Shown piece after piece: positions 34,890-43,200 of a stretch of DNA of 64,000 bases. The translations under genes and the position numbers were made by a program. The notes under the pieces were generated by a model. That model was not told where the DNA came from and ran no database searches. It saw only the letters and a program-made list of their open reading frames with translations. Position 1 is the stretch's first letter. Each line of letters opens with the position of its first letter. The DNA comes from Vampirovibrionaceae bacterium NZW_1234 (GTDB lineage: Bacteria > Cyanobacteriota > Vampirovibrionia > Vampirovibrionales > JAGQHJ01): positions 160,001-224,000 of the forward strand of contig JBGUGD010000039.1 of assembly GCA_041697335.1 (NCBI GenBank), written 5' to 3'.

Positions 34890-34993
34890 AGCGAGAAACA
34901 CCCCTTTTGCACAACATCCGACCGAAAAGCGCAATTTTGGCTGCCGTGGTGTCTTTATTGAGGCATCGATAGGAACAGAGAGACCCCGCCATA

Positions 34994-36235
34994 ATGACTG
35001 TATCCGGTATTGGGCTGACGGTTGGCCTGCGCTTTTCAGCGCGACCAGTCCCATCCGAAGCCACCCAAAAGACCCGGCGTTTTTTAACCGAGCTCAAGGC
35101 CCGGCTCATCCAGGATGGCACGTTTGAGACCTATCTGCTGATTCCGGCAGATGTCCTGAAGCAACCGGAGACCGGGGACTTAAACCCGAAAGAGCTGCGC
35201 TCGTATGGCCAAAAGCTCGGGTTCAACATTATCTCGGGAGCCGAAGCCAGAAAGCGGGCTCTTCAGGATCCGGAGGTTCAGGAGAGACGTACCGCCGGAG
35301 TCCGGCAGTCACATCAACGGCCCGAAGTTAAAGCCCTTCTGTCCCGCAAGGCCAAGGAGTATCTGGCCACACCGGAGGCCCGGGAAAAGCGGTGTCAGCA
35401 ATCCCAGCAATTGGCCCAAGACCCCGAGTGGCGTCAAAAGGTATCCGATGGAGTCAAAGAGGCCCTGGCCTCGCCAGAGGTGCGACGCCGGATGTCGGAA
35501 ACCTCGATTCGGGTGATGAGCGATCCGGACGTCCGAAGAAAGCTCTCGGAAAGGCTCAAAGCCATCTTCAACACACCCGAAGAGCAGGCCCGTCGACGTG
35601 AGACAACCCAGCGTGCGTGGGCGGACCCGGAAAAGCGAGGCCGAATGCTGGCAGGGCTACACCGGGTCCTGGAGGACGAGTCGTTTCGTCAACGGCGTGC
35701 CGAGGCCTCCCGCTTGGCATTGCAAGACCCTGAAGTGCGTGACCGAATCTCCCAAGGCATCCGAAAGGCCTTGGATACCCCGGAAGCTCGGGCCCGGTTG
35801 TCCCGGCAAATGAAACGGGCCTGGCAGGATCCGGTGATGCGGCAAAAGCTTCTGGAGGGTCGTAGAGACTGGCAAGCCCAGCAACCACGGCGGCCCAAGA
35901 CCCAAGGCACAGTCAACAACGCGACCGGCGAGACCATTGATATTCATGACACCTTAGCCTCCACAGCGCTGGAAACCCTGATTGACGAGGAAGAAGCCGC
36001 CATCAAGCAGGCTCACAGCCTGTTGCTTCAGGATGCCCTTGAGGTGCTCCAGGACGAGCACCCCATGGCGTATTTCATTGTTTGCCAGCGCTACGGGCTC
36101 GATGTCGCCCAGGAGAGCTTGAGCATGGAGGATCTGACGTTGGAGGACCCGAGTAAGGCAGATGATTTGTACCAGTTTGGCGTCTCCTTCATCCGGGAAT
36201 ACATGGATGCAGAGCTGGAGTCTTCCGAGACGTAA
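34994..36235 (+). CDS. 17-aa basic repeat (NUMOD3-like) protein with a sigma70 region-4-like C-terminus
   Basis: 12 tandem P-E-x-R repeats (35270-35881); C-terminal LQDALEVL...IVCQRYGLD...LSMEDL. Confidence 0.75.
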   Translation: MTVSGIGLTVGLRFSARPVPSEATQKTRRFLTELKARLIQDGTFETYLLIPADVLKQPETGDLNPKELRSYGQKLGFNIISGAEARKRALQDPEVQERRTAGVRQSHQRPEVKALLSRKAKEYLATPEAREKRCQQSQQLAQDPEWRQKVSDGVKEALASPEVRRRMSETSIRVMSDPDVRRKLSERLKAIFNTPEEQARRRETTQRAWADPEKRGRMLAGLHRVLEDESFRQRRAEASRLALQDPEVRDRISQGIRKALDTPEARARLSRQMKRAWQDPVMRQKLLEGRRDWQAQQPRRPKTQGTVNNATGETIDIHDTLASTALETLIDEEEAAIKQAHSLLLQDALEVLQDEHPMAYFIVCQRYGLDVAQESLSMEDLTLEDPSKADDLYQFGVSFIREYMDAELESSET

Positions 36236-36250: not shown

Positions 36251-36356
36251 ACGCGTGATTTACGCGTGAAAATTGGACAAACACGCGCGATTCACGCGCA
36301 AATCACGCGGCATTCACGCGTAAATCACGCCCGGGACGCGTGATTTACGCGTGAAA
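36251..36356. repeat. 11-bp-phased ACGCG array (iteron-like)
   Basis: ACGCG at 36251, 36262, 36283, 36294, 36305, 36316, (ACGCC 36327), 36336, 36347. Confidence 0.9.
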
Positions 36357-36925
36357 TTTCCAGTCGACACCCATCACCAGCCGCAGCCGGGTCAGCAGAA
36401 CAAAAGAGGGCAACATGCCGAAAAGCCTTGACTTGAGAGGCTTTTCGGCTACAACACATCATCCAATTGAGACCTTTAAACAACATGACATTCTACACAT
36501 GGCAGGGTATTTTTTTATTTTGGGGTGTTTTTACGCGAATTTACGCGTTTTTCCGTTTTTTAGAGGCGTCTGTATGAATGCTTTATTTATATCTTTATTA
36601 TATCATAGACACCTGTCATGCCGCCATTTTTAAGGATATCTTAAGAATCCAGGCCCCTTTTTTCTTATGCACCAAGGCTTTTGGCAGGAAAATACCCTAG
36701 AAAAAATCAGTGTATAGAGTTTTTCGGCTTATCGTCCGGGTAAAGTCCCTGATCATGAGATTTTTTTGGATCGACTCACGACGTTTGCCGGAATGCATCA
36801 TTGGCGTGTGGTGGTCCGAGGCGAGATCGGGCCGTGTGTCTCAGTCCAGGGGTTTTCAGAAAGACGATTTCTCGGGACAATTTTGCTCCGGCTTCGGGTT
36901 TACTTGTACCATAGCAATCTCCCTG

Positions 36926-39232
36926 ATGAGTGCCCCCCCCCGAATGCTATCGTCCTTGCCCCTCAGCCCATCGGTTGCGCCGGTTGCCTACGGTAAACCC
37001 GCATCCTCAATAAGAACAATACGAACACCCCTCTCCGATCCAGCATCAAAGCGTCTCAATGTTGGTTCACCCGGTTTCCGCTTTGGCATGGACTCTAACC
37101 CGACGGGTGAGCCTCCCGAGTCAGACCCTCGCTTGTTTTTATGGCAGATGATCGAGGCCTTTGGTGGCCGTGATGCTGCCTGCCGGGTCATCGCTCAAAC
37201 GTCGGACGCGCTGCAGCAAGTCATCCGCCAGTTTCCCGACAGCCCGACAACCGGCTCCCCGCCTTCGGATCCCGACGATCCCAATCGCGTTCACCCGCAA
37301 TCGGTTGTGGGCAAAGCGTTAAATTCGGTGCATTGGACCCTGACCCACCCCATCGGCACCGTTGGAAAACTGGGAGGCTTGCTTGAAGCCGGAGGCCAAT
37401 GGTTAAAAGCCACATGCGGTGATGCATCAGCGACGCCAAGCTCTCCCCCCAGCTCAGCAAACCCGGCCTCACCCGTGTCCGCGTCACCAACCGACGATCC
37501 CGAAGGGGATTGGCAAGGAATGGGGTTTCTGGCAGAAATTGTCTCGAAAACAGCCAATCACTATCAGGACTTCCAGCGTGGCATCGGTATCTTAAGACAA
37601 CTGGCCCGCCAGGAGTTAAACCCCTATCTGAGAGAAGCCATTAAGTTGTATTTTAAGAACGCGCTGGGCGTGGTTCCCTATGCCGCCACCGACAGCCCCA
37701 TCGGGTTGGCCCATCGCTTCATCGGGCAGAGCACCTCCATGGGGAAACTGGCCCAGTTGGCCCGCAACAACCCGCAATTTCCCCTGTGGCTTCAACATTT
37801 TCTGGGGCCGTTGATTCACCAGGGACGACCCACCCGCACATTGACGGAAACCCAGGCGGCCATCGACACCATTTTCGGGGCGAACCGCTACAAGGTGGAG
37901 AAGCGCATGGGTGTGGGCACGGTCTGTGAAGCCTACATGGTGGTCAATCAGCAAACCCAAACCGTCCAGGGCAGCCATGGGAAACCGGTCAACTTGAACC
38001 CCGGGGATCGGTTGGTCATTAAACTGCTGAAAGAGGGCATTAATGCGCAAAAATTAGATATTGAACGACGGGCCTTACTGGAAATCATTCAGGCCGTGTA
38101 CAGCAACCCGGATGAGCGGCATTACCATGTGACGTTTTTAAACAGCTTGTATGAGGGTTGGAATCGTGAACTGGACCTGTTCCATGAAGCCGAAGGGGCC
38201 AAGGCCCTGGCCGACGGGGCCGAGCGCTTTAGCGTGGTGAATATCTATGAGGTCGGCCGCCTGTCACCGGAACACCCGGTCAAAGGCCTGCCCTTTGATC
38301 CGCAAAACCCGGCACGCGGAGTGGCCCTGGTACAGGAATTTATTCAGGGGGTGGAGCTGGAGCGCTTGACGGACATGCTCCGACTGCACCGCAGCGATCC
38401 GGCAGAATACCAAAGCCGCCTAACCCAAGGCAAAGCCCCCTTTCGGCCCAACGATCACCAATCGTATCCATGGCTGGGGGATCCGAGCCCGTGGGCCAAG
38501 GCCGTACCCAAGACCTTCTTACGAGCACAAACCGAACAGATTCTACTCATCAACCCCAAAACCAAAACCAGGGCCGTCCATGGGGATCCCAGCGGCGGCA
38601 ATGTGCTCTTTAATCTGGATGCCGATCAGCGTCTGAAGCTTACCTACATTGACACCGGGCTGACGATTATGCGAAGCCCGGCCCATGTGTTGGACAGTGT
38701 GGCATCTCTAACCGATCTGATGCTGGGCAACAGCCACAGCATGGCAGCCAAACTGGTGAACTCCGCCATCGCCTTGCCGGGTGGAGTCAGCCCCAATGAC
38801 ACCTCGCCTCTTGCCCAGCAACAGCGCACCAAGATCATTCGCAAAGTCGCCCGGATTTTGGATGCCGAACTCTTTCGATCGGCCAATGACTGTACAAACC
38901 CCCAGGTCGTCCATCGCATCATGACCAAGGCCATGAAAGAAACCGGTGTTGTCCAGGCGACAGGGGACACGGCCTTTGTCAAATCCCAATTGCAAACCCT
39001 GTTGGTTTACAACGAGTTGTCCCATGTCACAGGCCAAAGGCCGGATACCATCTCTCGAGAGACATTATCCGACCTGGCACGAGGTTTTTACCGATTGTAT
39101 CCCGTGAGCGGACGCCTTGCCTTGAGGCGCCTGGCGGGTTCTCTGGGCCATGTCCTCAGACACCCGATTCTGGCCACAAAAACGTTTTATAAATTCATGC
39201 GTCGCCGTCCGGAAGAACCCGAAACCCGGTAA
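36926..39232 (+). CDS. ABC1/UbiB (AarF)-family atypical kinase with a Ser/Pro-rich N-terminal extension
   Basis: KLAQ, GVGTVCEAY, VIKL, ELDLFHEA, QEFIQG, HGDPSGGNV, IDTGL; start uncertain. Confidence 0.8.
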   Translation: MSAPPRMLSSLPLSPSVAPVAYGKPASSIRTIRTPLSDPASKRLNVGSPGFRFGMDSNPTGEPPESDPRLFLWQMIEAFGGRDAACRVIAQTSDALQQVIRQFPDSPTTGSPPSDPDDPNRVHPQSVVGKALNSVHWTLTHPIGTVGKLGGLLEAGGQWLKATCGDASATPSSPPSSANPASPVSASPTDDPEGDWQGMGFLAEIVSKTANHYQDFQRGIGILRQLARQELNPYLREAIKLYFKNALGVVPYAATDSPIGLAHRFIGQSTSMGKLAQLARNNPQFPLWLQHFLGPLIHQGRPTRTLTETQAAIDTIFGANRYKVEKRMGVGTVCEAYMVVNQQTQTVQGSHGKPVNLNPGDRLVIKLLKEGINAQKLDIERRALLEIIQAVYSNPDERHYHVTFLNSLYEGWNRELDLFHEAEGAKALADGAERFSVVNIYEVGRLSPEHPVKGLPFDPQNPARGVALVQEFIQGVELERLTDMLRLHRSDPAEYQSRLTQGKAPFRPNDHQSYPWLGDPSPWAKAVPKTFLRAQTEQILLINPKTKTRAVHGDPSGGNVLFNLDADQRLKLTYIDTGLTIMRSPAHVLDSVASLTDLMLGNSHSMAAKLVNSAIALPGGVSPNDTSPLAQQQRTKIIRKVARILDAELFRSANDCTNPQVVHRIMTKAMKETGVVQATGDTAFVKSQLQTLLVYNELSHVTGQRPDTISRETLSDLARGFYRLYPVSGRLALRRLAGSLGHVLRHPILATKTFYKFMRRRPEEPETR

Positions 39233-39237
39233 GCTGG

Positions 39238-40026
39238 TTATTCTCCGTACATATAGGGGCGATCCTCTTCTTTGAGATCCCCGCTGGGACGAAACCCTTT
39301 GGACGGGTCCGTGGGATCCAGCAAGGCCGCGGCCCCCAGTTCCGAATAGGGGTAGACCTTGGGGATCAGATCAATCTGCCCATCGCCGTTTCGATCCAGG
39401 TGCCGATCCTTGGTGCGCAAGGCTTCCACAATATTGTGGAAGAAGGCTTTGATGTCGCGGTTGGGAATGATGCGGGCGGCCAGGCGAGCCTCTTGCAAGG
39501 ACAATTTGCCATCCCCGTTTTGATCAAACAAACAGGCCACCATCCGTAAGAATTCCAGATGCATCGGGGCATGATAGCGATAATTGGGCCGTGAACCCGG
39601 AGCACCCGGCCGGTCTCCATCACGACGAGCCGGTACGATATCGGTGCCGGGTCGAATCCGAGACGGTAGCCTTACAGGACCCGCACCAGCGCGCATCCGG
39701 GAAATCAATCTCGCCCGATGCCGGGCCCGAATCCGACGGCCACGGCGTCCGATGCCGGGCATCAGATCCCCGGGCCGGGGCATCTGATCCATAATAGCGG
39801 ACGGACTCCGGGATATCAGATCCATCAACTCCGGCCGGATGGGAAACGGGGAAGGGGTGACTCCGGATGTAGGACCCGATGTCGGAAAAGGAAGCAAGCG
39901 ATGGCGATCCATCCCAACCCCGACCGCATGAGAATGATGCCCCCGGTCAAGTACAGAAGCCCCCTGTCCACGACGCCAATACTCAGCCTGGTGTGCTACA
40001 AGGCGCGCCAAAAAAGCATTCAACAT
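39238..40026 (-). CDS. EF-hand-like protein with an Arg/Pro-rich N-terminal half
   Basis: DQNGDGKLSLQE and DRNGDGQID loops; GGGAGG RBS. Confidence 0.7.
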   Translation of the reverse strand: MLNAFLARLVAHQAEYWRRGQGASVLDRGHHSHAVGVGMDRHRLLPFPTSGPTSGVTPSPFPIRPELMDLISRSPSAIMDQMPRPGDLMPGIGRRGRRIRARHRARLISRMRAGAGPVRLPSRIRPGTDIVPARRDGDRPGAPGSRPNYRYHAPMHLEFLRMVACLFDQNGDGKLSLQEARLAARIIPNRDIKAFFHNIVEALRTKDRHLDRNGDGQIDLIPKVYPYSELGAAALLDPTDPSKGFRPSGDLKEEDRPYMYGE

Positions 40027-42851: not shown

Positions 42852-43200
42852 AATACGTGACGGAGCAAGCACCGCAGCAACGACGCAGATTCGCCCCTCA
42901 ACACAGGCGTATTTTCAGCTGTCGTTGACCACGCCTGTGTTGAGAGGATGCAGATGCAAGGCGCGAGGCGCGCAGGGAAGGAGCGTATCAAAATACGTGA
43001 CTGGGCGAGCACCGCAGCAACGACGCAGATGCGCCCCGCAGCACAGGCGTATTTTCAGCTGTCGTTGTGCCCGCCTGGTGTGTGGGGATGCAGTTGCAAG
43101 GCGCGAGGCGCGCAGGGAAGGAGTGTATCAAAATACGTGACGGAGCGAGCACCGCAGCAACGACGCAGATGCGCCCCTCAGCACAGGCGTGGTCAACGAC
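42852..43200. mobile_element. tandem 140-bp MITE/REP-like palindromic repeat (~2.5 copies)
   Basis: AATACGTGA recurs at 42852, 42992 and 43132; 27-bp inverted ends at 42921-42947 and 43174-43200. Confidence 0.8.

Follow-up and report, generated by a model that had tools for sequence, protein, structure and literature searches.

An open reading frame with four parts

The window, that is, the whole stretch of 64,000 nucleotides analysed here, encodes a protein (P0001) made of four parts: an RF[GS] leader, a 65-aa helix-turn-helix (HTH)-like unit, an array of twelve 17-aa repeats, and a tail derived from sigma70 region 4 (Table 1). Its gene has a GC content of 59% against a genome median of 51%, which places it at the 97th percentile. 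Contigs of public hot-spring and mat runs carry segments of the gene without differences (35364-36141, X1; 35102-35512, X9); the matching runs are four, come from at most two samples, and may be the source sample itself. No RNA data set was listed as holding the region.

Taken alone, P0001 has no match at E ≤ 1 to the Pfam models NUMOD3 (PF07460) or Sigma70_r4, and its resemblances to both were thus reached only through its relatives. There was no TAL family match in Pfam, no match at E ≤ 10 in a sequence search of the PDB, and no usable match in the ESM Atlas. When the PDB sequences were searched with profiles, A2, A3, and A6 returned nothing significant, and A7 returned FliA (E 0.039) and RpoS (E 0.7). 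Pfam, NCBIfam, and PHROGs gave no nuclease family for P0001, and specifically neither a GIY-YIG nor an HNH catalytic domain, in agreement with the preliminary description, which had seen no nuclease motif.

Three other features of the window lie beyond this locus. An ORF for an ABC1-like atypical kinase (36710-39232; PF03109, E 1.2e-4, below the cut-off) has a long S/P-rich N-terminus, and its true start is probably downstream of 36710. On the reverse strand, an EF-hand protein (39238-40026) has an Arg/Pro-rich N-terminal half. A 140-bp tandem repeat (42852-43190; 2.4 copies, 91% match) directly follows a gene that by eye is lysyl-tRNA synthetase-like.

Table 1. Features of the P0001 locus, with positions in the window
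Feature	Position	Strand	Remarks
GCAATTT motif	34931..34937	+	63 nt before P0001 start; enriched ahead of leader genes
ORF P0001	34994..36235	+	413 aa; single copy in genome
N-terminal leader ending in RFS	34994..35044	+	RFS at residues 13-15; candidate type III export tag
65-aa alpha-beta-alpha-alpha-beta unit, HTH/winged-helix-like	35063..35257	+	Residues 24-88; 1-6 copies in relatives
12 x 17-aa basic amphipathic helices	35270..35881	+	Each D/T-P-E capped; NUMOD3-related; 34-aa super-period
Linker with short predicted beta-hairpin	35882..35947	+	Conserved in same-order homologues
Sigma70 region-4-derived tail, shortened HTH, acidic	35948..36211	+	Assigned by profile and fold
ACGCG-core array, 11-bp period	36251..36352	.	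16 bp after P0001 stop; one of 15 in genome
Two-unit satellite site of dispersed element	36526..36555	.	Same element as array
AT-rich box and TTAAG pair closing dispersed element	36588..36645	-	Faces array; promoter-like

Distribution and architecture of the family

With P0001 as the query, 4 of 60 relatives gave matches, each of them from the same order. At the scale of the class, a search with the N-terminal unit as a profile had matches in 10 of 401 genomes, one of them spurious (G291, dropped as a carrier because stops lie inside the match). The profile of the tail matched nine of the 401, two through true sigma70 factors, which were its only matches outside the family. The union of the two profiles gives 10 carriers among the 401 genomes, the source genome included, and none among the four genomes of the same taxonomic family (56-92% complete). 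Protein collections added further members, so that the family now comprises 21 proteins and two additional ORFs; P0020, an unrelated low-complexity repeat, was dropped as a relative. A metagenome scan with P0001 returned two repeat-only proteins, neither of which bears the 65-aa unit or the tail, and P0174 had no relative among annotated phages.

The members share a plan: an optional leader, one to five copies of the 65-aa unit as counted by HMM (six by eye in G163), 0-12 of the 17-aa repeats, and the tail. The tail profile had no match in 3 of the 21 proteins, and the ORF of G008 consists of two 65-aa units only. Since the repeats are optional—they are missing in 8 of the 21—the family core consists of the HTH-like unit and the tail. 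These two define the family, and the repeats are one exchangeable module. The preliminary description had proposed to follow variation in repeat number among paralogues. The 3.70-Mb genome has none (best non-self tblastn match, E 0.18), and the variation, from 0 to 12, was found among the relatives instead. We found no description of the family, of the RF[GS] leader, or of a type III effector route in Vampirovibrionia in the literature, mostly open-access, that we searched. The family is real and undescribed, with known kinds of module in a new arrangement.

Several traits would fit a decaying homing-endonuclease fusion without selected function: the spread across the class is patchy, the genes next to the family differ at each locus, and the GC content of P0001 departs from that of its genome as given above. 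Against such decay, the ORFs are unbroken in all ten genomes (one ends at a contig edge), the order of modules is retained among members at 25-35% identity, and P0001 has the leader and the upstream motif of a larger cohort of genes, described below. Neither integrase nor transposase families were seen in the flanking ORFs that we read; in G012 the family is present as a tandem pair of genes. We consider it very improbable that P0001 is a relic of this sort.

The repeats are of a kind found in homing-type nucleases

The preliminary description had reported twelve 17-aa repeats in register, and we recovered them at the coordinates of Table 1 (residues 93-296), with the first and last units exactly as quoted there. 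Mean pairwise identity between units is 27.3% in protein and 40.6% in DNA; shuffled arrays reach 8.3 ± 0.8%, and none of 10,000 shuffles attained the observed protein value. The autocorrelation of the array has a peak at lag 17 (0.235) and a higher one at lag 34 (0.312), which means that the units alternate. Across the twelve units, Pro stands at position 1 in 11, Glu at position 2 in 9, Arg at position 4 in 9, Arg or Lys at position 6 in 11, and Ser at position 8 in 6, while positions 3, 7, 11, 14, and 15 are mostly hydrophobic and form a stripe along each helix. The array is basic (48 K/R against 32 D/E), and in the AlphaFold2 model of residues 13-143 (pLDDT 96.6) each unit is one helix of about 15 residues. 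No position visibly behaves as a base code.

Proteins sharing the repeats are numerous: 2,237 cluster representatives matched at E ≤ 0.001, and among the 150 listed nearly all did so through the array. We scanned 87 of these 150 with Pfam. A nuclease domain was present in 33—GIY-YIG, LEM-3, T5orf172, HNH, Vsr/DUF559, or MTES_1575—and the repeats also accompany zinc-finger and ROS/MucR domains. NUMOD3 itself matched in 6 of the 87, in two cases inside arrays of the P0001 type. The related arrays of P0017 and P0025 exceed the Pfam NUMOD3 cut-off within the repeats, and in P0011 and L143 canonical NUMOD3 units are interspersed with the 17-aa unit within one protein. A profile of the repeats compared with ten NUMOD3-type units gave a probability of 95%, reached by none of 100 column shuffles; this test is partly circular, because the ten units had been chosen with a known motif out of proteins that P0001 had itself turned up. 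Two of the proteins found, P0039 and P0098, join a repeat array and an MTES_1575-like nuclease domain to a Mom-family DNA-modification domain. P0025 fuses an array of the 17-aa/NUMOD3 type with a SET domain, both behind an S-rich N-terminus, and may put the repeat to a second effector-like use.

NUMOD3-type motifs (E.R.K.S) are DNA-binding modules of homing endonucleases, and the preliminary description had likened the repeats to them. The likeness stands in that the same repeats occur in homing-type nucleases, and is qualified in that P0001 itself lacks a Pfam NUMOD3 match. The sequence comparisons support the repeats of P0001 being of the kind found in such nucleases. As in the NUMOD3 homing endonucleases I-TevI, I-BmoI, and I-HmuI, short basic helices with an E-x-R-x-K-h-S core stand in tandem, and many NUMOD3-bearing GIY-YIG/HNH nucleases contain the 17-aa unit. 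P0001 differs from these endonucleases by having no nuclease domain, twelve units where they have about three, and no match to the Pfam model, and it adds a leader and a sigma-4 tail. In the part of PMC3664794 available to us, NUMOD3 is described as a minor-groove-binding helix used together with an HTH module.

The best Pfam match of P0001 is to another family, GerD (PF17898), with 27.9 bits for a cut-off of 29.5; the NCBIfam model of GerD, again the strongest resemblance, scores 24.1 for a cut-off of 100. GerD is also the second structural match of the repeat-containing model (Z 5.0, rmsd 4.0, 50 residues), and its central core (PDB 4o8w) shares with P0001 proline-capped short helices of similar period. 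These matches and the hydrophobic stripe on each helix would suit a GerD-like helical rope that acts as a spacer or oligomerisation scaffold, leaving the binding of nucleic acids to the HTH-like unit. GerD is not a DNA-binding protein. P0001 differs from it in scoring below the cut-offs, in showing no lipoprotein signal, in being basic, and in having repeats that are found with DNA-acting domains. That the repeats accompany nuclease, zinc-finger, and ROS/MucR domains in other proteins, interleave with NUMOD3 units, and are basic argues against the scaffold, which we regard as decidedly doubtful.

The 65-aa unit was overlooked in the preliminary description and is conserved in the family. It lies in the same confidently modelled segment as the first repeats (residues 13-143), and no library that we searched gave a significant match for it. 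In the fold search all matches were weak (Z ≤ 5.1) and within the range of chance, including one to Spo11 (Z 4.6); the best compact matches were GntR-type winged helices (Z 4.0-4.5, rmsd 2.2-2.6, 50-55 residues). Foldseek had no match to the N-terminal model at E ≤ 0.001 in the PDB or among viral structures, where a GIY-YIG homing endonuclease ranked second (E 0.15). The ESM Atlas lead was a winged helix (0.76), and transposase HTH families of Pfam matched weakly in two relatives (E 0.0012 and 0.0092). We class the unit, from its model, as HTH-like and otherwise unclassified.

The tail derives from sigma70 region 4 and is acidic

A C-terminus resembling sigma70 region 4, as claimed in the preliminary description, is supported through the relatives of P0001, although P0001 alone does not match Sigma70_r4. 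The tail of the homologue in G060 matches that model (PF04545) with E 8.6e-5 and 22.4 bits, below the cut-off of 24.1; TIGR02937 is matched weakly by 4 of 23 family sequences, and family tails score under all curated sigma cut-offs. A profile of 19 tails, aligned over 95 columns to the nine sigma factors of the genome, gave a probability of 94% (E 8.7e-8, score 46.7). None of 60 block-shuffled controls reached this score (maximum 18), and the reversed control scored 10. The seven same-order tails by themselves scored 22.1 (probability 8%), with all 60 controls lower (maximum 17.7). The model of the tail (pLDDT 81.8, pTM 0.54) was compared with 48,161 chains, and ranks 1-12 are all chains of sigma factors or transcription complexes; the best has Z 7.0, rmsd 4.2, and 76 residues, and the first unrelated protein Z 5.9. 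Every fold Z-score for the P0001 models is below 8, and because such scores are middling they count only alongside the sequence evidence. Foldseek found nothing in the PDB at E ≤ 0.001 for the tail model. Together, the profiles of the relatives and the predicted fold support an origin of the tail in sigma70 region 4.

The tail has diverged from this origin. The hydrophobic pattern and the fold of region 4 are retained across the family, while in P0001 the HTH has a shorter turn, basic residues are missing from the recognition helix, and the stretch aligned with that helix is acidic. Net charge over the last 60 residues is -12 in P0001, -3 to -12 in leader-bearing members, -6 to +4 in leaderless relatives, and -1 to +10 in the nine sigma factors of the genome. 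An acidic tail whose recognition helix has been stripped of basic residues is unlikely to read -35 elements. No match to Sigma70_r2 came from P0001 or from the 16 proteins and fragments of the family that were scanned, and regions 1-3 as a whole are absent, which further separates P0001 from sigma70 factors. In the tree of tails, the nine sigma factors form a clade (97/93 support) that excludes the family, and the leader-bearing members show no clear grouping. A predicted complex of the tail with the organism's own beta-flap domain scored 0.21 for a mark of 0.32, a result that we counted neither for nor against binding.

The genome also encodes three giant sigma70 derivatives with leader-type N-termini, in ORFs of 723-1095 aa (C2:10943-13102, C8:33261-36494, and C8:170824-173799), one of which has many tandem region-4-like units.

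A cohort of leaders in a genome with two type III gates

The RFS leader that the preliminary description had pointed out has its motif at residues 13-15. It is one of many: RF[GS] occurs 166 times within residues 9-60 of 2,196 ORFs, where 48 occurrences were expected (3.5-fold), and the cohort numbers more than 100 proteins genome-wide (e.g., L105, L107, L109, L121, and L129). Ahead of the motif, S, P, T, and R are frequent, and D and E scarce. Type III substrates have a disordered N-terminus that is S/P/T-rich and D/E-poor, and organelle transit peptides also resemble the leader in composition. Of 213 leader-bearing proteins listed, we took the 80 longest, selected 40 of these by hand, and scanned them with Pfam. 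No match was obtained for 18; among the others, AAA proteases, peptidases, HEAT proteins, and metabolic enzymes predominate, and several have leaderless paralogues. The Clp, FtsH-like, and Lon-like proteases that bear a leader are extra copies, in addition to a housekeeping ClpC/ClpB and FtsH without one; an M16 peptidase bears a leader too.

Leader genes also share an upstream motif, GCAATTT, chosen from a k-mer screen. It is present ahead of 15 of 92 leader genes versus 20 of 1,055 AT-matched others, and its reverse complement is not enriched. The conservation of CAATTT within 250 nt is weak (four of eight same-order homologues, one of three others). Ahead of the leader genes we found no enrichment of the sigma-28 promoter motif or of two sigma-54-like patterns.

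Within the family, a motif of the FSG/FSR type precedes the first 65-aa unit in 11 of the 21 proteins, and one of the FSG/FSR/FG type is found at all eight loci of same-order genomes; in G028, the public annotation (P0172) begins downstream of its motif. The other 10 proteins (those of G060, G095, and G103 among them) have no leader, and in most of these the HTH is complete. Because of these leaderless proteins, export may hold for one branch of the family only.

FlhA and FliF each have two homologues in the genome. In addition to the flagellar genes on contig C2, there is a second flagellum-derived type III cluster (C32:10110-20950; L060, L062), which is compact and by eye comprises FlhA, FliF, and rod, switch, ATPase, and lytic transglycosylase-like genes. 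Two FlhA were found in all five same-order carriers (in G043 one is split over two contigs) and one in each of the four carriers from other orders, which are motif-less. The VirB4 family had no match in the genome (94.75% complete), and a motif scan for flagellin-like genes gave no hits.

A dispersed element beside the gene

Downstream of P0001 lies one copy of a dispersed element of 240-500 bp, made of an ACGCG array, a satellite, and an AT-rich box with a TTAAG pair. There are 15 copies in the genome; the pattern search recovered the satellite in 12 and the AT box with its TTAAG pair in 14. The other copies are at C3:21962, C5:151872, C8:4856, C9:66614, C10:47942, C20:91199, C25:24504, C26:101166, C29:26382, C30:53062, C32:8239, C34:54950, C34:97038, and C39:39205, and the copy at C34:54950 has its array and satellite, as one block, turned round with respect to the AT box. 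Neither the spacers nor any open frame is conserved, and Rfam matches stay far below gathering scores (tsr1, 25 bits against 235). The element occurs in this genome only among 61: the three-unit array pattern is absent from the 60 relatives, and the AT box, present in five of these (eight sites), never has an adjoining array. The sequence of the AT box and the TTAAG pair is suggestive of a promoter. The element could be a family of non-coding RNAs, a protein-binding array, or iteron-like.

The same AT box, mostly with a TTAA pair, also stands ahead of ordinary genes whose ribosome-binding sites are strong (C8:39404, C13:17220, C13:204643, C25:789, and C37:57839); these probably form a regulon, with a TTAAG spacing that recalls OmpR/PmrA-type boxes. 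The array pattern was also found in two viral contigs, once between genes and once inside a phage replication-initiator-like gene, where an 11-bp ACGCG-core repeat (L145:3001-3045) is followed by an A-rich tract. A repeat followed by an A-rich tract recalls iteron origins.

The arrays offer P0001 a possible target inside its own cell. It would then be an intracellular regulator or chromosome organiser that binds the 15 arrays, with a 34-aa pair of repeats spanning one 11-bp unit and the tail acting on the cell's own polymerase at the promoter-like end of the element. The position of one of just 15 arrays directly past the stop of P0001 speaks for this; we estimate the chance of an array adjoining a given gene at ~1% (30 flanks over more than 2,200 ORFs), for what is a single event. 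The restriction of the arrays to this genome is as expected of a fast-evolving pair of reader and target, and leaderless members of the family exist. However, the homologous loci that we fetched have no ACGCG clusters of three or more, and no comparable short-period array was found in the 14 flanking stretches examined. The promoter-like end of the element faces the array and also precedes ordinary genes, and P0001 bears a leader. We consider this intracellular role unlikely.

P0001 as a putative exported DNA-binding effector

By their defining features, the known systems closest to P0001 do not include it: it is not a sigma factor, a homing endonuclease, a TAL effector, or a member of GerD. 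Two of them are instructive about its layout. WhiA (DUF199) is a domesticated LAGLIDADG endonuclease with a sigma-4-like HTH; it is conserved and intracellular, and reads DNA with that HTH. Like P0001, it is nuclease-free and combines parts of homing endonucleases with a sigma-4-like C-terminus, these parts being LAGLIDADG in WhiA and NUMOD3-like helices in P0001. WhiA is also the second entry among the Foldseek matches of the tail, though not a significant one (E 1.5). TAL effectors consist, in this order, of a type III signal, a variable number of DNA-binding repeats, and an acidic C-terminus. This is the order of parts in P0001, whose export is predicted. The repeats themselves are unrelated: those of TAL effectors have 33-35 aa, two helices, and a repeat-variable di-residue code, those of P0001 17 aa and one helix, and the C-terminus of P0001 is, unlike theirs, a folded derivative of region 4. 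By analogy, P0001 may thus work like the DNA-binding chain of a domesticated homing endonuclease while being laid out like a TAL effector.

Our preferred reading, which we hold tentatively and short of calling it probable, is that P0001 is an exported, nuclease-free DNA-binding effector with a sigma-4 tail for protein contact. The leader would direct it to one of the cell's two type III export gates of the flagellum type. In the target cell, the HTH-like unit and the twelve short basic helices would grip a long DNA site, with the helices following the minor groove in the manner of NUMOD3 helices in homing endonucleases. The acidic sigma-4 fold would make a protein contact, most simply with a bacterial-type RNA polymerase or its sigma-4-binding partners, and the outcome would be transcription blocked or redirected in a bacterial-type compartment, either of a prey bacterium or an algal organelle. 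These steps differ in strength. That P0001 binds DNA is likely, that it is exported is more likely than not, and that the tail contacts RNA polymerase is plausible without being probable. Consistent with the effector are the free variation in copy number of both DNA-binding modules across the family, the leader and the upstream GCAATTT that P0001 has in common with the leader cohort, and the leaders with which three giant sigma-derived proteins and extra proteases also begin.

Two further readings bring P0001 closer to TAL effectors. In the first, the second type III system injects the reader and the sigma-4 tail is a decoy that captures the RNA polymerase of a prey bacterium or an algal plastid, the copy number of the homing-endonuclease helices setting the target; taken jointly, these propositions have a low probability. 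In the second, P0001 is exported to activate genes in a eukaryotic nucleus, and its tail has decayed to an acidic activation domain. Besides the shared order of export tag, repeat array, and acidic C-terminus, the acidity of the leader-bearing tails fits such an activator, as does the prey of the Vampirovibrio described in the part of PMC4451040 available to us, the alga Chlorella. Yet the hydrophobic pattern and fold of region 4 have been kept, which an unstructured activation domain would not need, and no repeat code was found. We regard a nuclear activator as quite unlikely.

As an exported effector, P0001 would offer a small, soluble test case of two things, a type III route of attack in Vampirovibrionia and an injected factor acting on bacterial-type transcription. 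One model of the attack invokes, in the part of PMC4451040 available to us, a conjugative type IV system; this genome, without a VirB4-family match, has instead two type III gates and a large tagged cohort. Independently of export, the 65-aa unit and the 17-aa helix are two unclassified tandem modules of free copy number, and thus candidates for extendable DNA readers. If the decoy version with its TAL-like targeting were true, P0001 would be one of more than 100 tagged proteins, including giant derivatives of sigma factors and extra Clp, Lon-like, and FtsH-like proteases.
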